Source: Chloroflexota bacterium | GTDB taxonomy: Bacteria; Chloroflexota; Anaerolineae; J036; Brachytrichaceae | Assembly: GCA_025354985.1 (NCBI GenBank) | Contig: JANXLU010000087.1 | Span: 82,813-146,812 of the forward strand | Length of the DNA stretch: 64,000 nucleotides | Reading direction: 5' to 3' | Shown here: positions 30,601 to 49,175 of the stretch, piece by piece | Layout: each line of letters begins with the position of its first letter | Position numbering within the stretch: position 1 is the stretch's first letter | Position numbers and translations under genes: made by a program | The notes under the pieces: model-generated | Databases searched by the model: none | Seen by the model: only the letters and a program-made list of their open reading frames with translations | Told to the model about the DNA's origin: nothing

Positions 30601-30634
30601 GATGCCATGCTATTATAGATTTGCGAAGACCCCA

Positions 30635-32305: not shown

Positions 32306-33240
32306 ATCAGCACACTCAAATCCGCATTGCCTCCACACATGAATACACCCACGCGCTCAGTGGGCAGCGGCTTATAAACGCCGCTCAGCAACGCAGCCAG
32401 CGCCGTCGCGCCGCCCGGCTCCGCAATCATGCGAAGGTGCTGCCATACCAACCCCTGGGTTTCAAGGATTGCCGCATCAGTAACTGTCACGGCGCGTTCG
32501 ACATGTCGCTTACAAATTTCCCACGACAGCTCACCAATTCGGGTCGCGCCGAGTGAATCTGCCGCAACGCCCCCTACCGAAACATCAACTGGATGACCTG
32601 CGCGCATGGCTGCCGCAAGACAGTGACTTGACTCCGGCTCAACCGAAATCACCCGCGCAGACCCGGCATACCAGGCCGCGATCCCTGCAATAAATCCGCC
32701 ACCTCCGGTCGCCACCAGCACCGTGTCCAGCCCGGGTTCCTGCCAGTTCAGTTCGCGCCCGCAGGTCCCCTGGCCGGCCAATGTTTCGGGTTTGTTATAA
32801 GCATGCACGTCCAGCGCCCCGGTTTGTTTCTGTCGCTCAATGCAAGCCGCCAGCGCACCATAGTAGTTATCGCCAACCACATTCAAAACCGCGCCGAGGT
32901 CCCGCAGTCGCCGCTGTTTGACTGGCGAGCTGATTACCGGTACAAAAATTTCCGCGCGCAATCCCAATTGTCGCGCGGCGTAGGCCGTTGCAATTCCGTG
33001 GTTTCCACCGCTCGCCGCGATTACGCCCGCCTCCTTCGCCCGATCAAGCTGAGACAGAATGCTGTTAAATGCACCCCGCGGTTTAAACGAGCCGGCCACC
33101 TGAGTCAATTCAAGTTTAAGCGTGGTCGGCGATTGCAACCGACCATCAAACGCTCATTGCTCCAGATTCAACGTGGGTGTAATGCGCACATGGCCTGCAA
33201 TCCGTTCCCATGCGCGGTCAATATCGCCTCTTGTGATCAT
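32296..33240 (-). CDS. PLP-dependent threonine/serine dehydratase-like gene interrupted by one in-frame TGA (pseudogene or recoding)
   Basis: The ATG at 33240 gives MITRGDIDRAWERIAGHVRITPTLNLEQ-[TGA 33154-33156]-AFDGRLQSPTTLKLELTQVAGSFKPRGAFN..., all in one frame. SFKxRGA is the PLP-Lys motif. The called ORF (32296..33138, TTG start) lacks the conserved N-terminus. Confidence 0.6.
33124..33145 (-). promoter_or_regulatory. Hairpin immediately downstream of the TGA in the dehydratase-like gene
   Basis: mRNA U-GGUCGG-UUGCAAUCG-CCGACC-A: 7-bp stem starting 8 nt after the UGA. Confidence 0.25.
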
Positions 33241-33282
33241 CTCGCATCCAAGTTTAGCGGATGTAATGGTAAAACTGAGGGA

Positions 33283-34257
33283 ATGTCAATCACAGAAATT
33301 GCGTTGGTCGGATGTGCCCACATTCACACGCCTGGTTTCATCAAACGCTTGCTCGCGCGATCCGATGTAAAGGTCACCCGTGTTTGGGATCATGAACGCG
33401 CGCGCCGCGACCTGCGCGCAGCCGAGCTTGGCGCCCTTGCCACCGGTGACCTGCGGGAAATCTTGGCCGGCAACGAAAGCGCAGTCATCGTGTGCGCGGA
33501 GACCAACCTTCACCAGGAGTTGGTGTTGCCCACAGTGGCCGCGCACAAGCACCTGTTTGTTGAAAAGCCTCTGGGGTTCGCGAGTGCGGACGCACACGCC
33601 ATGGCAACCGCAATTGAAGCCGCCGGCGTGCTATTCAGCACCGGCTACTTTCAGCGCGGCGAACCTATCAACCAATTTCTTCGTCAACAAATCACTGCCG
33701 GAGCATTTGGAAAAATCACCCGTGTTCGCAAAAGTAACTGCCATAGCGGGTCTCTCGGAGGCTGGTTCGATACGGATTGGCGCTGGATGACCGATATTGC
33801 CCGGGCGGGTGTGGGTGCGTTTGGCGATTTAGGCACCCATGCGCTCGACATTTTGATGTGGTGGCTTGGAAATGTAACCAGCGCCCATGCTGAGCTTGGC
33901 GTAGCAACGGGCCGGTATGGCGCTGCTTGCGACGAATTTGGTGAAGGCACGTTGCGCTTTGAAAACGGTGCCATTGGAACCATCGCCGCCGGCTGGGTGG
34001 ACGTTGCCGATCCAATCAAAACCGTCATCAGTGGTACGGAAGGCTACGCCCATGTGATTGGCGACGCGCTTTACTTTCAGAGCGCGCATGTATCCGGTGC
34101 TGACGGAAAACAACCCTGGCTCAGTCTCCCCCCGGCCTGGCCTCACGCATTTGAAAACTGGCTGGACGCAATAAGCGGCAAACAGCACGCACCACTGGTA
34201 CCTGCGCGGGAGGCCGCCGCCAGGAATACAGTCATGGAAGCGTTGTATAAAAAATAA
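33283..34257 (+). CDS. Gfo/Idh/MocA family oxidoreductase
   Basis: MSITEIALVGCAHIHTPGF, VEKPLG. GAGGGA lies upstream of the ATG at 33283. The first 160 codons of the 484-aa ORF are antisense to the dehydratase gene. Confidence 0.75.
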   Translation: MSITEIALVGCAHIHTPGFIKRLLARSDVKVTRVWDHERARRDLRAAELGALATGDLREILAGNESAVIVCAETNLHQELVLPTVAAHKHLFVEKPLGFASADAHAMATAIEAAGVLFSTGYFQRGEPINQFLRQQITAGAFGKITRVRKSNCHSGSLGGWFDTDWRWMTDIARAGVGAFGDLGTHALDILMWWLGNVTSAHAELGVATGRYGAACDEFGEGTLRFENGAIGTIAAGWVDVADPIKTVISGTEGYAHVIGDALYFQSAHVSGADGKQPWLSLPPAWPHAFENWLDAISGKQHAPLVPAREAAARNTVMEALYKK

Positions 34258-35324
34258 TGAAAAAACTAAACGTAGCTTGCATTGGAACCGGCGGAATCGT
34301 AAATTCGCACATGCCCGGCTGGGCGGAATCGCCATACGCCCAGGTGGTGATGGGTTGTGACATATACGAACCATCTATTAAGGCCTGGGGCGCCAAGTAT
34401 GGTGTCACGAACCTGACCACCAACGTTCAAGACGTTCTCAGCAATCCCGATATTGACGTGGTGGACATTTGCACACCGAACATGCTACACACGGATCTGA
34501 CGATCGCCGCGTTAAACGCCGGCAAACATGTGCTGTGTGAAAAGCCCCTGGCCCCCAGCCCTGACGACATCCGCAAAATGATCGCCGCGCGTGACGCAAA
34601 CGGCAAAATGCTGATGACCGCCCAGCATTTTCGATTTTCCGGGACCTCTCAGGCCATGAAGGCGGAAATCAACAGCGGCGCCTTGGGCGAAATCTATCAT
34701 GCTCGCAGCTGGATGCTCCGCAGAAATTTCCTGCCTACCCGCCCAACCTTTGTGCATAAAGAGCTGAGCGGTGGCGGTGTTTGTATCGACATCGGCGTGC
34801 ACATCCTGGACCTGACGCTTTGGTTTATGGGTAACCCAAAACCGCTCAGCGTCAGTGGAACCGCGCGGACAATTCTTGCCAAAAAGCCCGGCGCATTTTC
34901 AGCATGGGACGGCGGCGTTGGCATGCCCGAACGCAACGATGTGGAAGAACTGGCAACCGCCTTCGTCCGCTTCGAAAACGGTGCGTCGCTAATTCTCGAA
35001 GTCAGTTGGATGCTACACCACGATGTGCCAAACCCGGGCTCGGCCGAAGACATGCAAATGTGGCTTTATGGCACCGACGGTGGCGCCCAATGGCCGAAAT
35101 GCGAAGTGTATTCCTCCAACAATATAACCCGCCAGCACTACAACAAGCAACTGCGACTGACCCGGGACAAAAACGAAGCCCACAAGCAGGAAGTGCTCGA
35201 CTTTGCAAAGGCGCTGGCAGACGGAGCGCCTTCACCCGTTCCAGCCGAGCAAAGCCTGCAGGTGATGACCATTCTGAATGCCGTGTATCGCAGCCAAACA
35301 GAAGGGCGCGAAGTCCAGCTCTAG
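34257..35324 (+). CDS. Gfo/Idh/MocA family oxidoreductase
   Basis: MKKLNVACIGTGGIVNSH Rossmann start and CEKPLA motif. Its start abuts the stop of the previous paralogue. Confidence 0.8.
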   Translation: MKKLNVACIGTGGIVNSHMPGWAESPYAQVVMGCDIYEPSIKAWGAKYGVTNLTTNVQDVLSNPDIDVVDICTPNMLHTDLTIAALNAGKHVLCEKPLAPSPDDIRKMIAARDANGKMLMTAQHFRFSGTSQAMKAEINSGALGEIYHARSWMLRRNFLPTRPTFVHKELSGGGVCIDIGVHILDLTLWFMGNPKPLSVSGTARTILAKKPGAFSAWDGGVGMPERNDVEELATAFVRFENGASLILEVSWMLHHDVPNPGSAEDMQMWLYGTDGGAQWPKCEVYSSNNITRQHYNKQLRLTRDKNEAHKQEVLDFAKALADGAPSPVPAEQSLQVMTILNAVYRSQTEGREVQL

Positions 35325-35384
35325 CCGCCCGCCGACTTGTTGCGACATCGCATCAGCGAGCAATCGTTTAACCAAGATTACGAC

Positions 35385-35924
35385 ATGTCTACCGTAGTGA
35401 CCGTTTCCAGTTCTTCAGATCATTCGTTCAGCAAAAAACCGGTCGATCAAATTGAACTCATTGCGGGTATTGGTGTTGCCGGAGATGCACATGCGGGAAA
35501 AACGGTGCAACATCTCTCCCGCGTAGCCAAAGATCCGACCCAGCCGAATCTGCGCCAAGTGCACCTTTTACACACCGAACTGCTTGACGACTTGAATCTC
35601 AAGGGTTTCAAGGTGTACCCGGGTGACATCGGTGAAAACATTCTTACCCGTGGTGTTGATCTGCTTGGCCTCGTTACTGGCACGAAGCTGCACATTGGAT
35701 CGCACGCGGTCGTCGAGGTAACCGGCTTGCGAAATCCCTGCAAGCAGATTGAAACTTTCCAATCGGGCCTCCTAAGCCAGGTTGTAAGTCGCGATACATC
35801 CGGTCATGTGATGCGCATCGCCGGCGTAATGTCGATCGTGCTGACAGATGGCATGGTGCTCCCCGGCGATAACATCCACATAGAACCACCGCCCGCACCT
35901 CATCGCCCGCTCGAATACGTTTAG
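35385..35924 (+). CDS. MOSC domain-containing protein
   Basis: GIGVAGDAHAG...RQVHLLHTELL...PGDIGENILTRGVDL...LHIGSHAVVEVTGLRNPC is a typical MOSC beta-barrel with the conserved Cys. Start trimmed to MSTVVTV. Confidence 0.7.
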   Translation: MSTVVTVSSSSDHSFSKKPVDQIELIAGIGVAGDAHAGKTVQHLSRVAKDPTQPNLRQVHLLHTELLDDLNLKGFKVYPGDIGENILTRGVDLLGLVTGTKLHIGSHAVVEVTGLRNPCKQIETFQSGLLSQVVSRDTSGHVMRIAGVMSIVLTDGMVLPGDNIHIEPPPAPHRPLEYV

Positions 35925-35984: not shown

Positions 35985-36013
35985 TTGACCCGCGTTCGCC
36001 GCCGCATTACACT
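35985..36013 (+). promoter_or_regulatory. Sigma-70-like promoter (TTGACC-17 nt-TACACT) positioned for a leaderless transcript of the EssC-like gene
   Basis: -35 element at 35985-35990 and -10 element at 36008-36013. Only 7 nt (ATAAGTA, no Shine-Dalgarno) separate the -10 from the ATG at 36021. Confidence 0.35.
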
Positions 36014-36020
36014 ATAAGTA

Positions 36021-39000
36021 ATGGCACTTGAATATATTGACCGACCGCCGCGCATCCAGCCCGAGTTGCCTGTAGACAAGCACACGATTCCTGCACCGCC
36101 CACCCAGGAGCGGGATGGCATTGAACAAATAATTCAGAGCGTCATGCCGCTGATCGGCATGCTGGGTTTTGCCTTCGCCTCCGGCAGCGGAAACCCGCTC
36201 GCCATGGCTCCCATGTTTCTCATGATGGGTGGCACCATGGGCTTCAGTTTTTGGCAGCGTGGCCGCCAAAACGCAAAATTAGCCGTCAAACAGCGTCTGT
36301 ACACCCAGCATCTATTGGAACTTCGGCAGGACATGACCCGCGAGCACAACGTGCAACGGCTGCACTATCGCCACGTCTATCCCGATATTCCCACGGTGCT
36401 TGAAATCGCAAATCGCCATGAGGCCAGCCGATTTGGCAACCGACTTTGGGAGCGTCGCCCGTCCGACCCTGATTTTGGCGTGATCCGGCTGGGCATGGGC
36501 ACGCGCCCCTCCACGGTCAACTACATTTTCGACAAGCAAAACAACCCACTTGAAGACACCCCTCTCCACAAGGATGCTCGCAAGCTGTCCGAAGACAGCG
36601 CAATCGTGACCGACGCTCCGGTAACCATCAACCTCAGGCAGTGGACCAAGGCGGCGGTGACGGACGAAACCCAATCATCGGACGCCACTGCCGTGCCACC
36701 TCGTCATTCCGTGGGCCTGTTTGGCAAAAATCCCACCGCAACAAGCGATTTTGCCCGGGCCATCCTGGCAAACTTCTGCGCCTTTCATAGCGCGCAAGAC
36801 ACCCGGCTGTGGGTGATTGGTCACGCCAAGCAATCTCACGGCTGGCAATGGGCCGAATGGATGCCTCACGTAAATATCCGCGGCATCGGCGACGACGATG
36901 AAGACTCGGGCAAACCGCGCGCCATTCCGCAGCTGTGTTTTTCCGACGAACTACCCACGGTAAAGAACTTCTGGAAGCTCATCAAAAAGGAACTTGACAC
37001 CCGTCAGGTGCGTCTGCGTGACAAGAAGGATGACGACAAAGGCGGCAGTGACGTATCACTGCCCATGCTCCTGGTTGTGGTCGACATGGTGGGTGACTTG
37101 CCCAAGGACCATCCCTTGCGTGATGTCGCCAGCGAGGCTGTGGTCGCCCAGATCAACAACAATGGTCCGCAGTTGGGCGCCGCGATCATTTACCTGGGCA
37201 ATGATCCAACCCGGGTTCCAAGCGACTGCCAGGCCATGGTCGAGGTCTCGCCAACGGGCAACGAAGTCGTTTTCCGCTATACGGAAGTTGGGCTAAACAG
37301 CCCGCGCTACATGGGCATCGCCGATCTTCTAAACGCCGCCGATGCCCGTGCAAATTTTGCCGCCCGCATTCGCCGCCTGGAGCTTGCCCGCCCGTTTGGT
37401 TCAGACCTACCCCGCGCCGTCGATCTGTTGCAAATGCAATCGGTGGTCGAGGGCAAACGAGTCGACACGCTCGATAAATACGCGATCAACGACAAATGGC
37501 AGCGCAGCATCGTTCCCAAAAATAGCGAATGGCTGAATGCACCGCTCGGCATGCTCAGCATGAAGGACGTCCGCTCGCTGATCTTCAGCGCCAAGGAAGG
37601 CGGAGACGGTGTACATGGCATGATCGCCGGAACCACTGGATCCGGCAAGTCCGAGCTGCTAATGACCTTGATCGCCGGTCTCGCCGCCAAATACGACCCG
37701 CGCATTTTGAACCTTGTACTGGTGGATTACAAAGGCGGTTCCACTATCGAGCCCTTCCGCCACCTACCCCATACGGTCGATTTGCTGACCAACATGCAGG
37801 CGAATTCGGTTGAGCGCATGTTCGTGGCCATTCAAGCAGTCATGACAAAGCGAAGTGCGCTACTTGCCAAGGTTGGAGCCAGTGATATCGTAAAGTACCG
37901 ATCCGACATCGCACCAAAGCTTACCGAAAACGATCCCGAACCCAAAACCTTTCCGCACCTCTTCATCATCGTCGACGAGTTCGCGGAGATGATCACCGCC
38001 AACCCGGATTACAAGGCCAAGTTCGAAAGTATCGTGCGCCTTGGCCGTGCTTTTGGTGTAACCCTGATCCTCGCCACCCAGCGACCCGCCGGCGTAGTCA
38101 CCGATCAAATGCGTGCCAACATGAAGTTCCGCATTTGTCTGCGTGTTGAAACTCCTGATGACAGCAAAGAACTGCTCGGCACTGCTGATGCCGCCTTCCT
38201 GCCAAACCTGGGTGGCCGCGGATATATCCAAAGCGGCAACGAGCTGATGGCCGGAATTCAAGTGGCCTGGGCCGGAGGACCGTATTCCGAGGATCACAAG
38301 GTCTCGTTAAAGGATGTGATCTGGCTGGATGAAGAATCCATGCCCGCGGATGCCAACGAAACCAGTGAATTCACGGCCAGCGAAGTGGCGGAGGCCTTGC
38401 ACTTAAAGGAAGGCGAGTTGCCCAAAACCGTCCTTGAATGGATGGTGGGCAGCATGGCCCTGCGCGCAAAGCGGGACGGTGTTCCGCAACAGCGCAAACC
38501 CTGGCCCGAGCCACTTCCCGAGTTCCTCGCGCTCACCGATCCGGTCGACGCAAGCTATCTGAACACCGACCGCGACTTGCTCGCCGGCAAGAAAATTGTT
38601 ATCAATACCCTGGTCGATTCCTGGCTGAACAACGAAGAAGACAAAAACCTATGGCCAGCATTTAGTTGGAAAGATTACAAACCCCTCCGCGTTGACATTG
38701 GTCTCGTGGATAATCCCTACGATGCCGAGAATCGTCTGCTGACCATTGACCTGAGCACCGATCCATTGGCCGTGTTCGGCGCCGCTGGTCGCGGCAAAAC
38801 CACGTTCGTCAAGTCCTTGCTTACCGCGCTTGCGGCGCAACGGTCACCCGACGAGCTGCACATGTATGCGCTCGATTTTGGTCGCGGTGGTCTAAAGTCA
38901 ATAACCGCCCTGCCGCACATGGGCGCCAGCATCGATGCCAGCGAGACGGCCCGGGTCGATCAGCTCATCCGCATGCTGCGCAACTTCGTAAACGAGCGCC

Positions 39001-42000
39001 AGGAGCGCATGGCGAAAAGCACCGCAAATTCGCTTTCCGAATTTAACGCCTCAAGCACCACCGGAATTTTCCCGGAAATCGTCTGTGTCATCGACGGATT
39101 TATCGAGTTCAAGGAGAGCTATGAACATCAGATGGGCGAGCTGATGGGTCTCATCCGTGATGGACGCCAGTTTGGCGTGTATTTCGTGATAACGGCAACT
39201 GGGCTCGGCGACCTGGGCACAAAACTCTTTGGTGCCATGACGCAACGGGTCACATTTGCCCAGGCCGATGCCGGTCTGTATTTGGATTTGGTCGGCCGCG
39301 GTGCGCGTCCTTTCGACAACGTCCCCGGTCGCGGGCTGATTCCCGTGGCGATCAAGGATCAACCAATCCCGCTCGAGTTCCAACTCGGCGTACCCGGCAC
39401 CCCGGACCTGCATAACGATGCCGACCAAATAGATGGCTTTCAATTAATCGCCCAGCGCATGGAAAAGGTCTGGCTCGACATGGGCCGCAGCCGCCCCGCC
39501 GCAGAACTTCCACGCGCCATTAACATGTTCGAGATGATGGGCTTGATCGAGACCGGAAAAACGGACACCTTCAAGCGTGTGGGCGAGCTGCCCTTCCCTG
39601 AGCGGTGGGTCGAGAGCATGAAGCCTGGTAATCAGGAGTGGCTGAAGAGCGCGGTCGGGCTTATTTCAAGCAAAGACATCCGGGTCATGAACTTCCAGGC
39701 CCAGGCCGATGGCGTCCACGGCATGATCGCCGGCACCACCGGTAGCGGCAAGTCAGAGCTGTTGCAAACGCTGGTACTCAGCATGGCCATGCGCTACGAC
39801 CCGCGCATCGTCAACTTTGTGTTGGTTGACTTCAAGGGTGGCGCTACCATCGAGCCGTTCAAAAAGCTCCCCCACGTGGTCGATATGGCCACCGACCTGC
39901 AGGGCAATGCGGTCGAGCGCATATTTATCGCCATCAAGGCCGAGATGGATCGGCGCGCCGCATTGTTGGCCAAGGCTGGCGTCAGTGAATTGATCGCGTA
40001 TCGCAAGGACATCATCCCCAAACACCGCTCCGACCTTGAACCAACCTTCCCACACCTGTTTGTGGTCGTCGACGAATTTGCCGAGATGATCGCGCAGAAC
40101 CCGGACTATCGTCTGCAGTTTGAAAGCATCACCCGCCTGGGTCGCGCCTTTGGCGTCAGTTTGATCCTGGCCACCCAACGGCCCGCTGGCGTGGTCAGCG
40201 ACCAAATGCGTGCTAACATGAAATTCCGCATTTGCCTGCGCGTGGAAACCCCGGACGACAGCAAGGAACTCCTCAAACGACCGGATGCCGCCCGCCTCCC
40301 CCAAATCGCCGGTCGCGGCTATATCCAGGCCGGCACCGAGACCCTGACCGAAGTCCAGTCAGCATACTCCGGCATCAACTACAACGATGACATCCCCGAT
40401 CCGCGCTATTCCACGCAGGAAATTCTGGATGCGCTCGAGCTCGACGCCGAGAAAAAACCCGGCAAGCTCATCAATTGGCTGGTCGGCGCCATCGCCGTCG
40501 AGGCCAAGCGCCAGGCGATACCCAAACAGTTCAAACCCTGGCCCGATCCACTCCCCGCCCCGCCCGATCCCAAGGTGCCCGAGGATGTCAACTGGAAACG
40601 CTGGCCGATGCCGCTCAACAAGCATGTGGACGCGAGCTATATCAAAACGATCACCGAAACCGGCGCAACATCAGTTGTGCTGTCACCCCACCTCGCAGAC
40701 TGGATAACGGTGATCGAAAGCAAAGCAATTGACACCAAGGCCTTAAAGGGTCGCCGTCTGACCCAGGAGCTCCCGCTCGGCAACGCGGTCGTGTGGAAAC
40801 CCTGGACTTGGAAGACACCCTTGCCCATTTGGGCACATGTCGGCGTGGTGGACAATCCATTCCGCAGCGAACAGCGCACTCTCAGCCTGAATGTCGGAGG
40901 TGACCCAATGGTCATTTATGGCGCAAGTGGCAAGGGCAAGACGACTATTCTCAAATCCATTGTCTTTAGCCTGTGCGCCCAGTTCAGCCCCGCCGAGCTC
41001 AACGTCTATGCGCTTGACCTTGGACGTGGCGGTTTGCGCTCCTTCAAAAACCTGCCGCATTGTGGCGCGGTGATCGATGCCGCAGCAGCCGACCGCGTGT
41101 TGCAGTTGTTCCGCATGATCCGCAGCCTGATGGCCGAGCGTGAGGAGCGCCTGGCCAAATATGCCGATATGGCGGACTACAACGCCCAGATGCAAAAAAC
41201 CGACAACCCGGACGCCATGTTCCCTGGCGTTGTCGTCGTTGTCGATAACTTTGCCGAATTCAAGGAAACATACGAGAATCTGCTGCCCGACCTGATGGCG
41301 CTGGTTCGTGACGGTCGCCAATTTGGCATTCATTACATCCTCACCGCCAACGTGCCAAACGATCTGGGTAACAAGCTCAGCAACCTAATGGGTCAGCGCA
41401 TGACGTTTACCATGGCAGATGCATCGCAAATCCCCGAGGTGGTCGGTCGCGGCGCGCTCAGCCTGGCCAACCAGCCCGGTCGCGGCTTGATCAACATCGA
41501 GGGCCAGCCCCTGGAGTTTCAGGTGGCCATACCCGTCATGGAAAATGCCAAGGACCCATACTTGGTCATTGCCGATGCCATGCTCAGTGTCTGGACCGCG
41601 ATGGGCGGCAAGCAGCCCGCCGCCGAGGTTCCCAAGAGCGTGACAATGCTGGAGATGTGGCAGCGCATCGAGGGTCGCCGTGTTGACGTGCTCAGCGATC
41701 TCGATATCGCCGCTCGCTGGAAGCGCAGCATGGAACCCGCCAACAGCGAATGGCTCAGCGGCCCGCTTGGGTTGATTAGCAGCAAGGAAGTCCGCAACAT
41801 TTGGTTTACCGCCAAGCCCGGTGGAGACGGCGTCCACGGCATGGCCGCCGGAACCACTGGATCCGGTAAATCCGAACTCCTCCAAACGTTGATCGCTTCG
41901 CTGGCCATCAAGTATGACCCGCGGATCGTAAACTTTGTGCTCATCGACTATAAGGGCGGTCCAACCGTCGAGCCCTTCCGCAAGTTGCCACATTGCGTCG

Positions 42001-44909
42001 ATCTTGCCACCAACCTGGATGGAAACGCGGTCGAGCGCATCTTCACCGCCATGACCGCCGAGATGAATCGTCGAAGCGATATTCTTGCCAAGGCCGGCGT
42101 TGCCGATCTCGTCGATTATCGCAAGAAGGTGATCCCGACTCTCAAGCCTGATTCGCCGTTTCCGCGCACCTTCCCGCATCTGTTTGTGATCGTCGACGAG
42201 TTTGCCGAAATGATTGTGGCCAACCCGGACTACAAACAAAAGTTCGAAAGCATTACCCGCCTCGGACGTTCCTTCGGGGTCACCCTGCTCCTGGCCACAC
42301 AGCGCCCAAGCGGCGCGGTGACCGATCAGATGCGTGCGAACATGAAGTTCCGCCTGTGCCTGCGCGTTGAAACAAGCGATGACTCCAAGGAGATGATCGG
42401 TCGCAATGATGCACAGACGCTGCCAGCCATTCCTGGCCGCGGCTATATCCAGGTCGGCGGCGGTCCCGTCAGCGAAATACAGGCCGCCTATAGCGGCGGC
42501 AACTATGACGAAACCCGCGATCAGGTCTATTCCGGCGACGAAATCCTTGCCGCGCTCGATCATCCCCTCGATGCGCCACGGTCGCTGTTGGGATGGCTCG
42601 TGGGTGCCACCAATGCCGAGGCCCGCCGCCAGGGTATCCCCAAACAGTTCAAACCCTGGCCCGATGGTCTGCCGGTCAAGATGGGCTTGAACATGCCGTT
42701 TGACGCCACTTACTTCCCGCCGAAAGGTGTACCCAAGCCCCAAATGATCCTGAACCGTGGCGTCAAGGCTTGGTTGGAAAAAGACCTGACCGGTCTGGAT
42801 GAACTACTTGAGATGCGCCGGCTACCCGCCGAAGTTCCGCTGGTCAACGGGGTAAAGTCACTTTGGCCTGCTCATGATTTTGCACAAGGTGGCATTCCGC
42901 TAATCGCCAGTGTCGGTCTCGTCGACAACCCTTGGTACGCCGAACAACGCCTGATGGACGTCGATTTGGCCGGTGATCCCATGGTGGTGCTGGGCGCCAG
43001 CGGACGTGGCAAAACCACGTTCCTAAAGAGCCTGATGTTGTCGCTCGCCGCGCTGCGCTCACCGACCGAGCTGCACATGTATGTGCTTGACTTCGCACGT
43101 GGCGGCCTCAAGGCACTGCGCACTTTGCCCCACGTAGCCGGCATCGTGGACGGCAACGAAGACGAGCGCGTCGAGCGCTGGTTCCGCATGCTCCGCGGCA
43201 TCATCGATGACCGCCAAACCAAGCTCCAAGCGTACGATTCCGTAGCCGACTATAACGCCAAGAACCCAAACGACATCATGCCCGGTGTCCTTGGTGTGAT
43301 TGACAACGCAAGCGAGTTCAAGGAAGCCTACGAAAAGTATCAGCTTGAGCTGATATCCCTGGTGCGCGATGGCCGCGCGTTCGGAGTGCACTTTGTCGTC
43401 AGCGCCACTCTGGCAAACGATGTGCCAACAAAGCTTTACAACATCCTCACCCAGCACATAACCTTTACCCAGAGCGATGTTTCCAACTACAACGACATAG
43501 TCGGGCGCGGCTGGCAGCGCTTTAACGACACGCCCGGTCGCGGGTTGTGCACCGTAGATTTGGGCGGGCAACCCGTGCCACTGGAGTTTCATACTGCCAT
43601 CCCGCTGGATGCAAACAACAACGATGCCAGCCGTGACCTGGTCAAACGCATGGCAGATGGTTGGGCTCTGCTCGAAAAAGCCGACAAAACTCTCCGCTTG
43701 CGCAAGCCCAAACCCATCGAACCCCTCACCAGCATGGTCGATGAAGTTGGCATGCTCGGTGAGTTGGGTCAGGGCAAACCCGGCACGTTACAGGTTCCGC
43801 TTGGCATAAACGACAAAGACCGCGAACCGCTGATCATCGACCTGAAGAACAAGGGTCCCCACCTCATGATCATCGGCCCACCGGTCACGGGCAAGACCAC
43901 CGCACTACGGTCGCTGGTTCTTGGCCTAACCCACGCCTATACCCCGGAGCAACTCGGTCTTGTCTTTATCGATCCATCCGACACTGCGCGCCGTTTCTGG
44001 AATTATGGTGCCGAAGGAGACGACATACTGCTCAACATGCCCCACGTTCTGGGCACCATAACCAACGGCAAAGAACTCGATACCGTGCTACTCCGCCTCC
44101 GCGCGGAGTTTGACGACACTGTGATCAGTAAGCTCACCGGTACTCCAGGCTTTGAGGCTCAGGACAACGCCAAGCGCTGGATCGTCGTCATCGCCGATCA
44201 CTACGACGATATCGAACAAATCAACAAGACCGCCCCACGCGGTGTCAGCATGGCCACGCTTGCTGACATCGGCAAGGGCAAGAACATGAGCATCATCATG
44301 GCCGGTTCACTCGGCATCCTGCGTATGGGTGGTGACGAAGTCCGCCGCCGCGTCGAATCCACGCGCTACAGCGTCGTGCTCCAGGACTTCGAAACTGTCC
44401 GCAGCATGGGCGTGCGGATATCCGGCGCTCCGACAAAAGAACTCCCACCCGGTCGCGGCTGGATCGTAAAAGCTGTCACCGGTGGTCTCATGCAGGTCTC
44501 TATACCAGTGGTTGAAGGCAAGGGTGGCCGCACCAGCGAAGATCAATTGGCCCGCGTTCTTGGCGACATCCGCCTTGAATGGTCAAAGGCAAAATGGAGC
44601 TACGCCAGCGATGACCTCACGAATCTGATCAAAGCCGTCAAGGGTGAAGAAACCGCCGCAGCCGCGGCCGAGGCATTGGGCGCTCACGTCCAGATGACCG
44701 GTGCCGATCAGGCCGCGAAAATGTTCAGCGACCTCGAACGTCTCATGGCCGAACAAGCCGCCATGAAGCCACTCGAGTTGCCGGAAGTAACCAACCTGAT
44801 CTCACTCGAGCGCGATGCCGACGATCCCCGCCTCATCGAACAAGCCAAAAAGGACGCCGAAGCAAAAAAGAAGGCTGAAGCCGAGGCCAAAAACGGCACC
44901 GTCGCCTAA
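36021..44909 (+). CDS. Giant FtsK/SpoIIIE-family ATPase, EssC/EccC-like, with 8 P-loop-type domains
   Basis: 2962 aa. EccC-like N-terminus (IDRPPRIQPELP..IPAPP) and two TM helices (aa ~38-78). A degenerate domain lacks GK[ST] (aa ~225-460). Three domains carry GTTGSGKS with VDEFAEM and FR[IL]CLRVET.DDSKE...GRGYIQ. Three domains carry GA.G[RK]GKTT. One terminal domain carries GPPVTGKTT. Lys/Ala/Glu-rich tail. Confidence 0.85.
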   Translation: MALEYIDRPPRIQPELPVDKHTIPAPPTQERDGIEQIIQSVMPLIGMLGFAFASGSGNPLAMAPMFLMMGGTMGFSFWQRGRQNAKLAVKQRLYTQHLLELRQDMTREHNVQRLHYRHVYPDIPTVLEIANRHEASRFGNRLWERRPSDPDFGVIRLGMGTRPSTVNYIFDKQNNPLEDTPLHKDARKLSEDSAIVTDAPVTINLRQWTKAAVTDETQSSDATAVPPRHSVGLFGKNPTATSDFARAILANFCAFHSAQDTRLWVIGHAKQSHGWQWAEWMPHVNIRGIGDDDEDSGKPRAIPQLCFSDELPTVKNFWKLIKKELDTRQVRLRDKKDDDKGGSDVSLPMLLVVVDMVGDLPKDHPLRDVASEAVVAQINNNGPQLGAAIIYLGNDPTRVPSDCQAMVEVSPTGNEVVFRYTEVGLNSPRYMGIADLLNAADARANFAARIRRLELARPFGSDLPRAVDLLQMQSVVEGKRVDTLDKYAINDKWQRSIVPKNSEWLNAPLGMLSMKDVRSLIFSAKEGGDGVHGMIAGTTGSGKSELLMTLIAGLAAKYDPRILNLVLVDYKGGSTIEPFRHLPHTVDLLTNMQANSVERMFVAIQAVMTKRSALLAKVGASDIVKYRSDIAPKLTENDPEPKTFPHLFIIVDEFAEMITANPDYKAKFESIVRLGRAFGVTLILATQRPAGVVTDQMRANMKFRICLRVETPDDSKELLGTADAAFLPNLGGRGYIQSGNELMAGIQVAWAGGPYSEDHKVSLKDVIWLDEESMPADANETSEFTASEVAEALHLKEGELPKTVLEWMVGSMALRAKRDGVPQQRKPWPEPLPEFLALTDPVDASYLNTDRDLLAGKKIVINTLVDSWLNNEEDKNLWPAFSWKDYKPLRVDIGLVDNPYDAENRLLTIDLSTDPLAVFGAAGRGKTTFVKSLLTALAAQRSPDELHMYALDFGRGGLKSITALPHMGASIDASETARVDQLIRMLRNFVNERQERMAKSTANSLSEFNASSTTGIFPEIVCVIDGFIEFKESYEHQMGELMGLIRDGRQFGVYFVITATGLGDLGTKLFGAMTQRVTFAQADAGLYLDLVGRGARPFDNVPGRGLIPVAIKDQPIPLEFQLGVPGTPDLHNDADQIDGFQLIAQRMEKVWLDMGRSRPAAELPRAINMFEMMGLIETGKTDTFKRVGELPFPERWVESMKPGNQEWLKSAVGLISSKDIRVMNFQAQADGVHGMIAGTTGSGKSELLQTLVLSMAMRYDPRIVNFVLVDFKGGATIEPFKKLPHVVDMATDLQGNAVERIFIAIKAEMDRRAALLAKAGVSELIAYRKDIIPKHRSDLEPTFPHLFVVVDEFAEMIAQNPDYRLQFESITRLGRAFGVSLILATQRPAGVVSDQMRANMKFRICLRVETPDDSKELLKRPDAARLPQIAGRGYIQAGTETLTEVQSAYSGINYNDDIPDPRYSTQEILDALELDAEKKPGKLINWLVGAIAVEAKRQAIPKQFKPWPDPLPAPPDPKVPEDVNWKRWPMPLNKHVDASYIKTITETGATSVVLSPHLADWITVIESKAIDTKALKGRRLTQELPLGNAVVWKPWTWKTPLPIWAHVGVVDNPFRSEQRTLSLNVGGDPMVIYGASGKGKTTILKSIVFSLCAQFSPAELNVYALDLGRGGLRSFKNLPHCGAVIDAAAADRVLQLFRMIRSLMAEREERLAKYADMADYNAQMQKTDNPDAMFPGVVVVVDNFAEFKETYENLLPDLMALVRDGRQFGIHYILTANVPNDLGNKLSNLMGQRMTFTMADASQIPEVVGRGALSLANQPGRGLINIEGQPLEFQVAIPVMENAKDPYLVIADAMLSVWTAMGGKQPAAEVPKSVTMLEMWQRIEGRRVDVLSDLDIAARWKRSMEPANSEWLSGPLGLISSKEVRNIWFTAKPGGDGVHGMAAGTTGSGKSELLQTLIASLAIKYDPRIVNFVLIDYKGGPTVEPFRKLPHCVDLATNLDGNAVERIFTAMTAEMNRRSDILAKAGVADLVDYRKKVIPTLKPDSPFPRTFPHLFVIVDEFAEMIVANPDYKQKFESITRLGRSFGVTLLLATQRPSGAVTDQMRANMKFRLCLRVETSDDSKEMIGRNDAQTLPAIPGRGYIQVGGGPVSEIQAAYSGGNYDETRDQVYSGDEILAALDHPLDAPRSLLGWLVGATNAEARRQGIPKQFKPWPDGLPVKMGLNMPFDATYFPPKGVPKPQMILNRGVKAWLEKDLTGLDELLEMRRLPAEVPLVNGVKSLWPAHDFAQGGIPLIASVGLVDNPWYAEQRLMDVDLAGDPMVVLGASGRGKTTFLKSLMLSLAALRSPTELHMYVLDFARGGLKALRTLPHVAGIVDGNEDERVERWFRMLRGIIDDRQTKLQAYDSVADYNAKNPNDIMPGVLGVIDNASEFKEAYEKYQLELISLVRDGRAFGVHFVVSATLANDVPTKLYNILTQHITFTQSDVSNYNDIVGRGWQRFNDTPGRGLCTVDLGGQPVPLEFHTAIPLDANNNDASRDLVKRMADGWALLEKADKTLRLRKPKPIEPLTSMVDEVGMLGELGQGKPGTLQVPLGINDKDREPLIIDLKNKGPHLMIIGPPVTGKTTALRSLVLGLTHAYTPEQLGLVFIDPSDTARRFWNYGAEGDDILLNMPHVLGTITNGKELDTVLLRLRAEFDDTVISKLTGTPGFEAQDNAKRWIVVIADHYDDIEQINKTAPRGVSMATLADIGKGKNMSIIMAGSLGILRMGGDEVRRRVESTRYSVVLQDFETVRSMGVRISGAPTKELPPGRGWIVKAVTGGLMQVSIPVVEGKGGRTSEDQLARVLGDIRLEWSKAKWSYASDDLTNLIKAVKGEETAAAAAEALGAHVQMTGADQAAKMFSDLERLMAEQAAMKPLELPEVTNLISLERDADDPRLIEQAKKDAEAKKKAEAEAKNGTVA
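37407..43691 (+). repeat. Three tandem in-frame copies (~2.1 kb, ~700 aa each) of a two-ATPase module inside the EssC-like gene
   Basis: Units start at LPRAVDLLQM (37407), LPRAINMFEM (39507) and VPKSVTMLEM (41628). Walker A GTTGSGKS codons start at 37629, 39732 and 41850. Second P-loops start at 38778 (GAAGRGKTT), 40920 (GASGKGKTT) and 42993 (GASGRGKTT). Confidence 0.8.
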
Positions 44910-44983: not shown

Positions 44984-45175
44984 TTCCTTGAGTAACGCTT
45001 GCTGAACTTTGCGTTGCAAATGGCACGCGTCTGCCGATATTACTCAAAGGGCTCACGCACGTGTTTTGTCCACTGCAAAACAGCGCACTCAGTACTTACG
45101 TATTTCTCCTCCTGATCACAAAGTGAACAGCATTTGGTCTGGCCGGCGATCAGTCTGCCGGCCACAATCCTATTC

Positions 45176-46597
45176 ATGAAACACGCAATCGTAATCGGAG
45201 GCAGCATGGCCGGGCTGCTTGCCGCCCAGGCCCTCAGCACTCACGTGGATCACGTGACGGTCATTGAGCGCGACGTCCCAGGCAACAAACCAGAACCCCG
45301 TAAAGGTGCCCCGCAGGGGCGTCACATTCACGCCCTCCTTGCCCGAGGCGCCCGCATTCTTGAGCGGCTGCTACCCGGCCTACAGGACAACTTGGGCGCG
45401 GCCGGTGCTCCCTTGGTCGATTGGATTGGCGACAGCTGCGTATCGAACCAATTCGGCGCAATGCCCCGCTTCACCAGTGATCTCCGCACCCGCGCCTGCA
45501 GTCGACCGCTGCTTGAATTTGTCATCCGCAATCGGGTGCTGCAAAATCCCAGGGTCACATTTCAAATGGAAACCGATGCCTGGCAATTGGTAACGACCGA
45601 TGACCACGCCAGAGTGATCGGTGTAAACCTGCGCCACCGCGCCACGGGCGCGCTCTCAACCCTTCTGGCCGACCTTGTGGTTGACGCCAGCGGTCGAAGT
45701 TCCAAGGCCTTCGAATGGCTCACCGCTCTTGGCTTAACCCCACCAACCGAGCAGGTGGTCAACAGCGCGCTCGCTTACGCCAGTCGTGTCGTCCGCATGC
45801 CGGCTGACTTCAAGCCGGACTTTAAGCTTTTGATTCAGCGCATTCGCCCCCCTCACGGTCGCCGCGGCGGCGGTATGTACTTGATTGAAAACAACACCTG
45901 GATGGTGACGCTGGGTGGCGCAAAAGATGAACAACCACCCCTCGACGATTCCGGATTCATTGAATTCGCCCGCCAGCTTGATCCAAACCTGATAACACCC
46001 AACGCCAGCAGCTCCGCCCCCCTGTTGCATGACCTGCTCGCCCGGTCCGAGCCACTAACACCAATCGTGGGCTACCAACGCACCGAAAATCGCTGGCGAC
46101 ACTTTGAAGAGTTGGAGCGCATGCCCGCCGGGTTTGTGCTTATGGGTGATGCCGTGTGCGCCTTCAACCCCGTCTACGGTCAGGGCATGAGCACTGCAGC
46201 CATGGGTGCCGAGCTGCTCCAACAGTGGGTTGCCGACGGTGGATCCGCCAAGGTTAATGGCACCCGCGCGTTCCAAAAGAGCCTGGCTAATCTGGTGCGC
46301 ACGCCATGGTTGCTGGCAACCGGTGAAGATGCACGGGCTGTGGGCATTGTGGATCGCACGCGCGCCGTGCGCTTCAATCACGCCTATATCGATGCGCTCC
46401 TGGGGCTCACAAACTCAAATCATAAAATCTGCAAGGCATTTCTGGATGTCGCCCACCTTGTCAAACCACCCGCGTCATTATTTGCACCCGGGATCGCGCT
46501 ACCGGTGTTGATCCGCATGGTGGCCACTACGGCCTCCAAACGCTCAAAACCATCTCCGCGACCGACAAAAGCAGAAGCCCTCGTCCCCATATCCTAA
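45176..46597 (+). CDS. FAD-dependent oxidoreductase/monooxygenase-like protein
   Basis: MKHAIVIGGSMAGLLAAQAL...VTVIERD is a dinucleotide-binding motif. DLVVDASGRSS is a GD-type motif. Start trimmed from 45134. Confidence 0.6.
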   Translation: MKHAIVIGGSMAGLLAAQALSTHVDHVTVIERDVPGNKPEPRKGAPQGRHIHALLARGARILERLLPGLQDNLGAAGAPLVDWIGDSCVSNQFGAMPRFTSDLRTRACSRPLLEFVIRNRVLQNPRVTFQMETDAWQLVTTDDHARVIGVNLRHRATGALSTLLADLVVDASGRSSKAFEWLTALGLTPPTEQVVNSALAYASRVVRMPADFKPDFKLLIQRIRPPHGRRGGGMYLIENNTWMVTLGGAKDEQPPLDDSGFIEFARQLDPNLITPNASSSAPLLHDLLARSEPLTPIVGYQRTENRWRHFEELERMPAGFVLMGDAVCAFNPVYGQGMSTAAMGAELLQQWVADGGSAKVNGTRAFQKSLANLVRTPWLLATGEDARAVGIVDRTRAVRFNHAYIDALLGLTNSNHKICKAFLDVAHLVKPPASLFAPGIALPVLIRMVATTASKRSKPSPRPTKAEALVPIS

Positions 46598-46611
46598 CGT
46601 TCGTAATTACC

Positions 46612-47178
46612 ATGGCAAGCAACAACTATCATTTCATTACAACCTGGCACGTGCGCGGCACCTGCGAAGAAGTAGCCACCGTTCTTGGCGATGCCCTGGC
46701 TCTCGCACGGTGGTGGCCCAGCGTCTACTTGGAGGTCACCGAGCTTGCACCCGGTGACCCCGTAACGGGCCTTGGCCGCCAAATCGGTTTGTTCACCAAA
46801 GGCTGGCTGCCCTACACCTTGCGCTGGCGGTTCACGGTCACCGAGAGCAATTTTCCACTCGGATTCAAAATTATTCCGCGTGGAGACTTCGTGGGCCGCG
46901 GAATTTGGACCCTCGTGCAACAGGGTGATCAAACAGTGGTGACATATGACTGGAAAATCACGGCGGAAAAGGGTCTCCTAAAGCATCTCTCGTTCATAAT
47001 GAAACCCATCTTTGGGGCCAACCATGAATGGGCCATGGCCCGAGGCCAGGAAAGCCTTCAACTTGAGCTTCGCCGTCGCCGCGCAACCACGCAAACCGAG
47101 TTGGACGCCATCCCGGCGCCACCCGGCCCAACATTTACGCGTCGCGCCCGCTCCGAAAGCACCGTGATGGCCGCATGA
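46612..47178 (+). CDS. SRPBCC (polyketide cyclase/dehydrase-like) family protein
   Basis: 188 aa. The pattern YHFITTWHVRGTCEEVATVLGD...WWPSVYL is typical of SRPBCC/START-like proteins. Confidence 0.6.
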   Translation: MASNNYHFITTWHVRGTCEEVATVLGDALALARWWPSVYLEVTELAPGDPVTGLGRQIGLFTKGWLPYTLRWRFTVTESNFPLGFKIIPRGDFVGRGIWTLVQQGDQTVVTYDWKITAEKGLLKHLSFIMKPIFGANHEWAMARGQESLQLELRRRRATTQTELDAIPAPPGPTFTRRARSESTVMAA

Positions 47179-47375
47179 TCGAGGTCTAGTGGAACATAAC
47201 CGATGCTGAGCTTGTCAAGGCACGCCGCCCCAGCCACAAGCGATGTAGCCTGACCCTCCCGGATTGTGCGCCCACGCACATTAGTGCAGCAAATCAACGC
47301 CGGCCTTGCCTTTAAGAAACGTACACCATGACGATGTTTTCCCGCACCTGCGGCTGGCATAATAAAGGTGCAACC

Positions 47376-47786
47376 ATGACTGACGAACAAGAAATTCGCG
47401 AGCTGGTGTCAACCTGGCAAACCGCTTCAAAACTGGGCGACACCACAACCGTGCTGTCTCTCATGACCGAAGACGTCGTGTTCCTCACTCCGGGCCGCCC
47501 GCCAATGATTGGGCGCACCGCATTTGAAGCCGCGACCAACGCCGCGGCGTCGTCCACCGGTACCCGACCTCAGATTGACGGCACAACCGACATAAAGGAA
47601 ATCACGGTTTTTGGGAACTCGGCGTATCTGTGGTCCCACATCCGCGTGGCAGTAACACCACCTACAGGCGGCAACCCGCTGATTCGTTCCGGCCATACGA
47701 TTACCGTTTTTCGCCGTGAATCCGGCAAATGGATGATCTGCCGAGACGCCAATATGTTGACCCTGGAAAAAGAACCCGGGCAATAG
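47376..47786 (+). CDS. SnoaL-like / DUF4440 (NTF2-fold) protein
   Basis: MTDEQEIRELVSTWQTASKLGDTTTVLSLMTEDVVFLTPGRPPM...WMICRDANML is a typical NTF2-like signature. Start trimmed from 47328. Confidence 0.65.
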   Translation: MTDEQEIRELVSTWQTASKLGDTTTVLSLMTEDVVFLTPGRPPMIGRTAFEAATNAAASSTGTRPQIDGTTDIKEITVFGNSAYLWSHIRVAVTPPTGGNPLIRSGHTITVFRRESGKWMICRDANMLTLEKEPGQ

Positions 47787-48123
47787 CGTCGCACCCCAAC
47801 CGGCTTCTCACCTATTCGTTTGCACCCGGCATCTTGCATACGACCATTGCGAGGCATCTCCTGCCCACTGGAGTCGGAACCTTGTTAATTCCAACTGCCA
47901 GACCAGTCTCGTCGACCGCTTCCGCACACTCTTTCCAGATACGTTTACCGTTGAAGGTAGTCGAGGCATCATGATTCTAATCGGCCGTGGCTCGCGCAGA
48001 GCTCGCTCAATGCATCCGGGCCCCGTTGACCCATCATCTGACCGAGAAATAACTTCTCCGGCCTCACCAGCGTGTGCCACGCCCGGATCGGCCGGGCTCC
48101 CGGACATTATAATCCATTCAATT

Positions 48124-48513
48124 ATGAAAGCAAGATGGATGAACATCCCGGTCAATGACCAATCTGCGGCCCTCGGGTTTTACACGTCGAAGTTGGGGTT
48201 CATTGTCAAGGATGACATGCCTATGGGCCCCATGCGCTGGCTCACCGTGGTCTCGCCCCACGACCCGGACGGCGTGGAAATCGTGCTCCAAGCCACTGCA
48301 TTCCCGGGCGCTGCCGCGCTGCAACAAGCCCAGTTTGCTGCAGGCATGCCGGCCGCTGCCTTCCATTCCGCCGACGTGCGCTCCGAATACACCCACCTAA
48401 AACACCTCGGCGTCACGTTCCGTGGCGAGCCTGTGTCCATGGGCCCAATCACCGCAGTGCTTTTCGAAGACACCTGCGGCAACCTGATCAACCTCGTCCA
48501 ACCCGCCACCTAG
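48124..48513 (+). CDS. VOC (glyoxalase/bleomycin-resistance) family protein
   Basis: MKARWMNIPVNDQSAALGFYTSKLGF...FEDTCGNLINLVQ. Start trimmed from 47971. Confidence 0.75.
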   Translation: MKARWMNIPVNDQSAALGFYTSKLGFIVKDDMPMGPMRWLTVVSPHDPDGVEIVLQATAFPGAAALQQAQFAAGMPAAAFHSADVRSEYTHLKHLGVTFRGEPVSMGPITAVLFEDTCGNLINLVQPAT

Positions 48514-48529
48514 CATCCCCTGCCCATCA

Positions 48530-48592
48530 TTGGCCGCGGGCCAACCATTGAGCGCGGGCATCCTGCCGCTATTTGCCGCAGGCCAGTCTTCG
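48530..48592. repeat. Family B GC-rich hairpin repeat copies
   Basis: GGCCGCGGGCCAACC, GAGCGCGGGCATCCTGCCGC (48550-48569) and TTGCCGCAGGCCAG. Shares the core GAGCGCGGGCATCCTGCC with 44964-44981. Confidence 0.55.
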
Positions 48593-48614
48593 ACTACCCC
48601 ATATAGCCCTCACC

Positions 48615-49175
48615 ATGGCCCCCAAATCCCTGATGCCTCCCTTCGACCAAATCCAAACTCCCCGCCTGCACCTCCGTCGCCTAACCCTAGCCGACGCCGA
48701 GCCTCTTGCAACGTATCGCGCCCTCCCCGAGGTCATGCGCTTGCAACTATGGGATCACTATGACCTCGAAACCGCCCGCACTCTTATCTCCGCAGTCAAC
48801 CTCGTCGAGCCTTTCACTCCTGCGAGCGCTTACCAGTTCGCTGTAGAGCTATGCGCAACTGCCCAACTAATCGGCGACCTGTATTTCAAGACCGACGACG
48901 CCGGCACCCAGGCGGAAATAGGTTGGACGTTTTCACCCGATTTTCAGGGTCGCGGCCTTGCAACGGAGGCCGCCCATGCGCTGATCGACCATGCATTTCG
49001 CAACCTGGGCTACCACCGCATATATGCCATCACCGACCCGCGACACACCCAATCCATGCGCCTGATGATCCGGCTTGGCATGCGTCAGGAGGCCCATTTT
49101 CGCCAGAATCTCTGGTTCAAGAGTGCATGGGCGGATGACGTACACTTTGCGGTGTTGGCTCAGGATTGGTCATAA
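48615..49175 (+). CDS. GNAT N-acetyltransferase (RimJ/RimL-like)
   Basis: IQTPRLHLRRLTLADAEPL...FQGRGLATEAAHALIDHAF...HRIYAITDPRHTQSMRLMIRLGM. Confidence 0.75.
   Translation: MAPKSLMPPFDQIQTPRLHLRRLTLADAEPLATYRALPEVMRLQLWDHYDLETARTLISAVNLVEPFTPASAYQFAVELCATAQLIGDLYFKTDDAGTQAEIGWTFSPDFQGRGLATEAAHALIDHAFRNLGYHRIYAITDPRHTQSMRLMIRLGMRQEAHFRQNLWFKSAWADDVHFAVLAQDWS

Follow-up and report, generated by a model that had tools for sequence, protein, structure and literature searches.

The 64,000-nucleotide window analyzed here (contig JANXLU010000087.1 of assembly GCA_025354985.1, positions 82,813 to 146,812, from a Chloroflexota bacterium) carries one giant gene at nt 36021-44909 (+), stop codon included, which begins with ATG and, by the list of open reading frames (ORFs) and the translation, runs as a single unbroken frame of 8.9 kb and 2962 codons. 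Its product, of ~325 kDa by an estimate from the length, is identical to an entry in the public protein collection (P0001; P numbers are used here for the homologous proteins and L numbers for their loci) and is very likely an EssC/EccC-family type VII secretion ATPase. The domain order is two transmembrane (TM) segments, a degenerate DUF, three successive D1-D2 pairs, D3 and a tail, giving eight NTPase-type domains (DUF, D1 x3, D2 x3, D3) and not the canonical four (DUF, D1, D2, D3). A sequence-only reading of the same DNA had proposed a 2962-aa EccC/EssC-like ATPase with a triplicated D1-D2 pair, a single D3 and a Lys/Ala/Glu-rich tail, and the ORF, Pfam, NCBIfam and alignment results bear this out; its count of eight P-loop-type domains stands for seven recognizable FtsK-type domains, the eighth being the degenerate DUF.

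The N-terminal segment, nt 36021-36260 (+), holds a conserved motif (IDRPPRIQPELP) and, by hydropathy scan, two hydrophobic and probably membrane-spanning segments, at aa 37-55 (nt 36129-36185) and about aa 58-78 (nt 36192-36254). The motif is kept by all homologues, and the N-terminus as a whole matches those of EccC5, EccC3 and YukB. It is followed at nt 36261-37406 (+) by a stalk and a degenerate ATPase-like DUF domain, placed by the EccCa model, PDB sequence matches and motif positions; a P-loop remnant, GLFGKNPTA (nt 36714-36740), and a Walker-B-like strand, LLVVVDMVGD (nt 37068-37097), are still recognizable there, and a motif scan found no GK[ST] in the DUF region or elsewhere in the first 462 residues. 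A PDB sequence search pairs these 462 residues with YukB (227-485), EccC5 and EccC3, over the N-terminal and DUF parts of those proteins. Hydropathy, the YukB/EccC matches and the motif scan therefore agree with the EccC-like N-terminus, paired TM helices and degenerate domain lacking GK[ST] that had been read from the letters.

Between the DUF and D3 lie three units of about 700 aa, each composed of a linker, a D1 and a D2, which align end to end with 46-50% identity by BLASTP and about 52% by MAFFT. They start where the sequence-only reading had put them, at nt 37407, 39507 and 41628 (aa 463, 1163 and 1870). Unit 1, nt 37407-39506 (+), aa 463-1162, is delimited by unit comparison, alignment with T. 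curvata EccC, an AlphaFold2 (AF2) model and Foldseek; its D1a has a core at nt 37581-38300, with Walker A at 37629-37652 and Walker B, LFIIVDEFAEM, at 37959-37991, and its D2a a core at nt 38661-39350, with Walker A at 38778-38801 and the Walker-B strand IVCVIDGFIEF at 39078-39110. Unit 2, nt 39507-41627 (+), aa 1163-1869, rests on unit comparison, with D1b also included in the AF2 model. The corresponding positions are nt 39690-40394, 39732-39755 and 40056-40088 for the core, Walker A and Walker B of D1b, and 40803-41495, 40920-40943 and 41229-41261 (VVVVVDNFAEF) for those of D2b. In unit 3, nt 41628-43700 (+), aa 1870-2560, also from unit comparison, they are nt 41802-42515, 41850-41873 and 42180-42212 for D1c, and 42873-43559, 42993-43016 and 43287-43319 (VLGVIDNASEF) for D2c. 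(An antisense ORF of 452 aa at 41385-42743 (-) lies wholly within the ATPase gene; it most likely arises from the high G+C content of the coding strand and is no gene.) The single D3-type domain, nt 43701-44495 (+), aa 2561-2825, is supported by a PDB sequence match and the NCBIfam EccCb model; its Walker A, GPPVTGKT at nt 43875-43898 (aa 2619), confirms the P-loop previously placed at 43875, and its Walker-B-like strand, VVIADHYDD at nt 44184-44210, has no catalytic Glu. The 137-aa C-terminal tail, nt 44496-44906 (+), is by composition count an Ala/Glu/Lys/Leu-rich stretch (25, 15, 13 and 13 residues, respectively); it gave no family match, and no Pfam or PDB match covers it.

Walker A motifs of the form GxxxxGK[ST] are found at aa 537, 920, 1238, 1634, 1944, 2325 and 2619; an eighth match, GLIETGKT at aa 1174, lies in a linker and is due to chance. 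In the D1 copies GTTGSGKS and Walker B are paired at aa 537/647, 1238/1346 and 1944/2054, with Walker B reading LF[IV][IV]VDEFAEM in 3/3, and the whole catalytic set (Walker A Lys, hhhhDE, [TAS]QRP, RxCLRVE and GRGY) is present in all three. Like their canonical counterparts, all D2 copies and D3 have a P-loop and are without the catalytic Glu; their Walker B letters are IDGF, VDNF and IDNA in the D2 copies and A-D-H in D3. These D2 letters had been recorded correctly by the sequence-only reading, but they are no peculiarity: the D2 Walker B of T. curvata EccC also reads D-N (VVDNW), so that strands without Glu are the normal state of a D2.

The Pfam family FtsK_SpoIIIE is matched in seven stretches (E 4.9e-168), and the top NCBIfam match is EssC (TIGR03928), at 1507.9 bits against a cut-off of 778.4. 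EccCa (TIGR03924) reaches 1045.7 bits against 509.15, aligned over aa 25-755, and EccCb (TIGR03925) 838.8 bits against 346.55, with its best stretch at aa 2289-2825; such whole-protein scores are inflated by the repeats, yet they are far over the cut-offs. Unit 1 aligns with T. curvata EccC (4NH0) at E 1.4e-67, its first half with D1 and its second half with D2. Solved structures resemble the last domain (aa 2561-2825) in sequence only over its N-terminal ~90 residues, whose best PDB sequence match is the D3 of the same protein (4NH0 residues 898-982).

A motor for DNA or conjugation, of the FtsK/SpoIIIE/TraB kind, would belong to the same hexameric superfamily with its RecA-like fold, and the protein does have FtsK/HerA-superfamily domains, with weak Pfam and NCBIfam matches to FtsK, TraB and TrwB and with Foldseek matches to FtsK at E about 1e-16. 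But the FtsK model NF007615, with a cut-off of 1566 bits, reaches no more than 165.4 and is matched only at positions 1008-1223 of 1355, its motor domain, with the gamma domain unmatched, and TraB scores 131.6 against 800, whereas the EssC and EccC models lie far over theirs. A DNA translocase chain has a single motor domain together with a DNA-binding gamma domain, and its N-terminus is of another type; here the N-terminus and DUF match EccC/YukB, and WXG100 genes stand beside the ATPase gene in relatives. That this is a DNA translocase instead of a protein secretion motor is very improbable.

An AF2 monomer model of D1a-D2a-D1b (aa 463-1560), computed from a 56-sequence alignment, has a mean predicted local distance difference test score of 86.3 and a predicted TM-score of 0.73. 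Foldseek lays it on the D1-D2-D3 of 4NH0 over 1019 alignment columns (E 7.7e-54), with a TM-score of 0.76 normalized by target and a root-mean-square deviation of 6.6 Å. Since the model superposes in this way, the canonical stacking is predicted to carry on across the new D2-to-D1 junction, with the caveat that 4NH0 was probably in the AF2 training set and may have biased the outcome.

The same build is widespread among relatives. A search of 5.8 billion proteins gave 228 matches at E <= 1e-10; among the 120 clusters listed, about 110 are 2750-3140 aa long with 34-62% identity, and every one with a named source is from Chloroflexota (Anaerolineae, Anaerolineales, Caldilineaceae, Promineifilaceae, Aggregatilineales). 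A unit profile detects three complete units in 111 of the 120 homologues listed, and the three-unit build is common to over 100 protein clusters from the Chloroflexota class Anaerolineae, about 2850-3000 aa in length. A scan of GTDB species genomes yielded 67 loci, all from Chloroflexota except two short contigs, L048 (3.9 kb) and L077 (1.8 kb); these carry ATPase fragments 62-65% identical, filed under Alphaproteobacteria and Intrasporangiaceae metagenome-assembled genomes, an assignment that probably reflects binning contamination rather than transfer.

Tandem repeats of ~2.1 kb are a classic source of assembly errors, and a normal one-unit essC gene enlarged by repeat mis-assembly would look superficially like this one. 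Here, though, the units have 68-69% DNA identity, in the cores only, and about 52% protein identity, so that reads would map uniquely; each unit has positional orthologues in 53/54 relatives of the same lineage; and the three-unit build recurs on very long contigs (14.3 Mb, 1.65 Mb and 549 kb) that would seem, from their size and names, to come from long-read assemblies. An assembly artefact, which the sequence-only reading had also discounted, is for practical purposes refuted. (In L029, L055 and L041, two of them with MFD-type names, the giant gene and its FHA neighbors are broken into several ORFs; this looks like assembly frameshift errors rather than real pseudogenes.)

Conservation is strong and is uneven along the units. 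Between the units of the query, protein identity is 67-69% in the D1 cores, 46-49% in the D2 cores and 28-47% in the linkers, so that the earlier description of the cores as two-thirds identical holds for D1 and fails for D2. Across the 111 three-unit homologues, each D1 copy retains G[TSG]TGSGKSE, hhhhDE[FY]AEM, [TAS]QRP, RxCLRVE and GRGY in at least 90%, which extends to the family the intact Walker A and Walker B Glu that had been noted in the three D1 copies here, and each D2 copy retains GxxGxGKT and IDNFxEF at the same level. The D1 copies are equally conserved among orthologues, at 79-82% in the lineage of the query (g1, below) and 79-88% overall, and the D2 copies at 62-66%. The D1 copies of the query average 75-76% against their orthologues, and its units are as similar to the orthologues as these are to each other, which gives no sign of relaxed selection. 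Judged from these comparisons, the triplication is old, under purifying selection and selectively maintained; the sequence-only reading had suggested as much, and the positional orthologues in 53/54 relatives and the equal conservation of the D1 copies agree with it.

The multi-unit proteins fall into three lineages: g1, that of the query, with 54 proteins; g2, with 8, including two named as Aggregatilineales; and g3, with 49, including ones named as Caldilineaceae and Promineifilaceae. Within g1, U1, U2 and U3 each form a clade holding 53/54 proteins and are thus positional orthologues, and the triplication therefore predates the g1 radiation. Between g1, g2 and g3, a region-by-region test found no positional signal in any sub-region. 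Kimura distances are 0.5-0.8 between units within a lineage and 0.87-1.04 to any unit of another lineage, and in each lineage U2-U3 are closest and U1-U3 farthest. In the bootstrapped unit tree all g1 units form one clade (100%), with one-unit proteins P0124/P0126 as sisters (68%), all g2 units form another (100%), with one-unit P0128 as sister (89%), and the g3 units group with those of two-unit P0163 (62%). A search with the single-copy N-terminus finds, among the near relatives, many one-unit proteins of 1470-1580 aa with up to 44% identity, along with a two-unit protein, and in the N-terminal tree the multi-unit proteins never form one clade (0/100 bootstraps).

Relatives of one locus type have 1, 2, 3 or 4 units. 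P0002 has four, the extra one belonging to the U2/U3 type; P0059 and P0060 come from complete genes with two units, lying between pseudokinase and FHA genes; in P0056 all three units cluster together (100%), and u2 and u3 pair up in P0040 and P0113. One-unit Anaerolineae ATPases (P0124, P0128; L060, L061, L066, L067, L073, L074) have the canonical four-domain build and 1404-1570 aa, but resemble the three-unit ones in an N-terminus with up to 44% identity, in occupying the same kind of locus, with small genes A-D, a pseudokinase gene and an FHA gene as neighbors, and in a single unit that is sister to the multiplied units. Other one-unit relatives (P0141, P0169, P0170, P0183 and P0150, 2066-2376 aa) owe their length to ~200 additional residues separating D1 from D2 and to a long extension of the C-terminus. 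Assembly DATEVL01, a single metagenome-assembled genome, contains two loci (L057 and L059), one with a one-unit ATPase (1552 aa, 45% identity) and the other of the query lineage (59% identity, cut by the contig end). A-D genes and a pseudokinase gene accompany each of them, so that the two kinds can, provided that the binning is correct, coexist as separate systems.

That units group by lineage and not by position points to repeated expansion or to concerted evolution, and repeated expansion of a one-unit ancestor is the simplest reading. A single ancient triplication, whose copies were kept similar within each lineage by gene conversion, would explain why all three lineages have exactly three units and why the distance pattern (U2-U3 closest, U1-U3 farthest) is alike in each, and the within-protein clustering in P0056, P0040 and P0113 indicates that homogenization or re-duplication does occur. 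It fits poorly with the missing positional signal between lineages, with the one-unit proteins that branch beside multi-unit lineages in the unit tree (P0128 with g2 and P0124/P0126 with g1) and in the N-terminal tree, and with the failure of the multi-unit proteins to form a clade in any bootstrap; the g1 units, moreover, have stayed distinct through the whole radiation, so that conversion cannot have been continuous. We regard this single origin as a serious but somewhat doubtful alternative. The reading that D1-D2 number is a freely evolving "length setting", with at least three independent expansions from one unit to three and with gain and loss ongoing, has in our estimate an even chance of being right. 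On either account, unit number is an evolvable motor parameter, and three units arose or were re-homogenized separately in at least three lineages.

The surroundings of the gene in relatives were surveyed at 77 loci, the upstream view being 9-10 kb in several. The conserved locus consists of four small genes, A-D, of ~100 aa each, upstream of the ATPase gene and on its strand, a divergent Pkinase-like gene of ~375 aa, the ATPase gene and an FHA gene of ~209 aa; membrane FHA proteins of ~650 aa, larger proteins with an N-terminal WXG100 domain, PP2C and VWA proteins are encoded nearby. WXG100 genes are linked to the ATPase in L003-L005, L007, L008 and most loci with intact upstream flanks. Small proteins A and B are over the Pfam WXG100 cut-off, while C and D match WXG100 weakly, D having a hydrophobic center in place of the WxG; A is tandemly duplicated in L005 and L046. 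The Pkinase-like protein (L004 8610-9740 (-), with equivalents in L003, L005, L007 and L008) has neither HRD nor VAIK; a Cys-rich stretch, CxxC...CxxxxC, stands at its N-terminus and a hydrophobic anchor at its C-terminus, which makes it a tail-anchored pseudokinase with the topology of EssB/YukC.

None of these partners was found in the window, a point that the sequence-only reading had missed. A tblastn search of the 64 kb with 38 partner proteins from L003-L005 gave no match at E <= 0.01, and about 40 ORFs of the window belong, by Pfam, to metabolic or housekeeping families only. Upstream of the ATPase gene, at 30599-35924 (+), are a TPR/methyltransferase-like gene, two GFO/IDH/MocA oxidoreductase genes and a MOSC gene; downstream, at 45134-49175 (+), are FAD monooxygenase, polyketide-cyclase-like, SnoaL-like, glyoxalase and GNAT genes. 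These flanks contain no mobile-element genes that would explain a relocation, and the window flanks show no synteny with 78 related loci.

The ATPase gene is thus separated from its partner genes in this window, and the partners are presumably encoded elsewhere in the genome. It might instead be an orphan remnant, its partner genes lost and the ATPase out of secretion, either decaying or taken over for another ATP-driven task: there are 64 kb without any partner gene, the flanks share no synteny with those of relatives, and P0015, its nearest relative in the unit tree, keeps the full locus. It is also the most isolated locus among those examined, since even the split loci of relatives keep either the pseudokinase (L001/L002) or the FHA gene (L017, L020, L026, L027) within 9-10 kb. 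But the 8.9-kb frame is uninterrupted, the catalytic motifs are intact in all seven P-loop domains, and the 75-76% mean identity of D1 with orthologues shows no relaxed selection. In several relatives, furthermore, the WXG100/pseudokinase block is likewise missing from the 9-10 kb upstream, so that split loci are normal in the family. An orphan remnant is for these reasons unlikely; with the gene intact and all motifs present, partners elsewhere are the likelier explanation than decay.

In canonical EccC, two TM helices and a stalk precede a DUF and D1-D3, and Walker A and hhhhDE are fully conserved only in D1 (PMC11154593). The protein resembles the T7SSa EccC proteins (T. curvata 4NH0, EccC3/EccC5) in having no N-terminal FHA domains, in its two TM helices, stalk and degenerate DUF, in a D1 with full Walker A and hhhhDE and in D2 and D3 domains with a P-loop but no catalytic Glu. 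It differs from them in having seven FtsK-type domains after the DUF against three, with three catalytic D1 copies, in its 137-aa charged tail and, as judged from relatives, in its partners, a pseudokinase and FHA proteins being present in place of EccB/D/E or mycosin. With T7SSb EssC/YukB it shares the top model match, putative WXG100 substrates and, in relatives, a tail-anchored pseudokinase resembling EssB/YukC in topology; unlike there, FHA is not fused to the ATPase but is on separate proteins in relatives, D1-D2 is multiplied, and no EsaA or EssA homologues were seen in the loci examined.

A possible parallel in gene content is the T7SSc subtype, where genes for a membrane Ser/Thr kinase, for a PPM phosphatase and for a vWA protein adjoin that of an FHA-less ATPase, TscC (Garrett, Higginson and Palmer 2024, PMC11217815). 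The relatives' FHA-less ATPase has among its neighbors a kinase-like membrane protein, a phosphatase of the PP2C/PPM kind and VWA proteins, including VWA-FHA ones, although none of these is inside the window; the relatives depart from T7SSc in a kinase-like protein without HRD/VAIK, in four WXG100-like paralogues, A-D, and in an ATPase with 1-4 D1-D2 units. That survey covers Bacillota and Actinomycetota only and assigns four NTPase domains to each type VII ATPase (PMC11217815), and the relatives' locus is a type VII kind outside it; in other papers Chloroflexi are mentioned only as holders of WXG100 genes. A full-text literature search found no description of a multiplied D1-D2 module and no experimental work on Chloroflexota type VII systems. 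The sequence-only reading had suggested that the architecture might be undescribed, while allowing that it might prove common and already characterized: it is common in Anaerolineae, but as far as we searched we found no paper describing it.

Taken together, the protein is probably an intact, membrane-anchored type VII motor ATPase of an Anaerolineae-specific lineage, with D1-D2 multiplied between the DUF and D3. As in EccC, it would form a hexamer beneath the membrane, its cytoplasmic stack lengthened by the extra units to eight rings instead of four. Three hydrolysis-competent D1 rings would stand in series, each followed by a D2 ring that binds ATP without hydrolyzing it and may be regulatory. 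In canonical systems D3 receives the substrate signal; here WXG100-type substrates would be received by D3, possibly also by the D2 copies, and their export would be driven by ATP turnover in D1a-c. Such a stacked three-motor mechanism is plausible from what is established for EccC and FtsK hexamers.

Several points weigh on the other side. The hexamer, the stacking of its rings and the activity of all three D1 copies are extrapolated from sequence and from an AF2 monomer possibly biased by 4NH0. Neither tblastn nor Pfam, over about 40 ORFs, found a WXG100, pseudokinase, FHA, PP2C or VWA gene in the 64-kb window, and a secretion function in this organism would rest on partners outside the window. 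Promoter-like sites in the region are not above shuffle expectation; a weak consensus-scan match, TTGACC-17-TACACT at 35985-36013 (+), ends 7 nt before the ATG, and no Shine-Dalgarno-like sequence is visible before the gene. Lastly, in the survey of 77 loci the extra D2 copies show no link to substrate-gene number. The sequence-only reading had suggested several substrate-docking tiers, but one- and three-unit ATPases adjoin the same four WXG100-like genes; WXG100-like gene number is independent of unit number, which leaves substrate docking by the extra D2 rings unsupported. (A rule that WXG100-like genes number units plus one, seemingly suggested by four genes at three-unit loci and five at four-unit L005, was rejected, since all four of A-D occur at one-unit loci too and three-unit L046 has A, A, B, C and D; the contigs of two-unit variants L009 and L010 end inside the WXG block, and these are excluded from the small-gene counts.)

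Elsewhere in the window, a stand-alone protein like a nonribosomal peptide synthetase is encoded at 26428-29070 (+); its 880 aa include AMP-binding, PP-binding and thioesterase domains and no condensation domain. A second AMP-binding enzyme lies at 12802-14370 (-). The 1497-aa product of 58526-63019 (+), with Chlamydia-PMP-type repeats and matches to lactonase/SGL/NHL beta-propellers, is probably a large surface protein, and a 1061-aa protein with Sortilin-Vps10 and BNR/Asp-box repeats is encoded at 15658-18843 (+).

To our knowledge, all studied EccC/EssC motors have a single D1, and the proteins described here bear on how such motors link ATP hydrolysis in D1 with pore opening and with the recognition of substrates by D2/D3. 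If unit number is indeed a length setting, selection would have converged on motors that place three catalytic rings in series, and nature would have provided a variant series for studying the division of labor between D1 and D2 in type VII secretion. The conserved three-D1 family, with its one-, two- and four-unit relatives at the same locus type, is a ready comparative series that bears on whether catalytic rings work in series, on the part that D2 rings play, as spacers, brakes or docking sites, and on the chamber length that is needed. For annotation, it means that the ~2900-aa "FtsK/SpoIIIE domain-containing proteins" are secretion motors and no assembly errors; and the type VII systems of Chloroflexota, with four WXG100-like paralogues, a tail-anchored pseudokinase and FHA proteins, are a distinct and unstudied variant.

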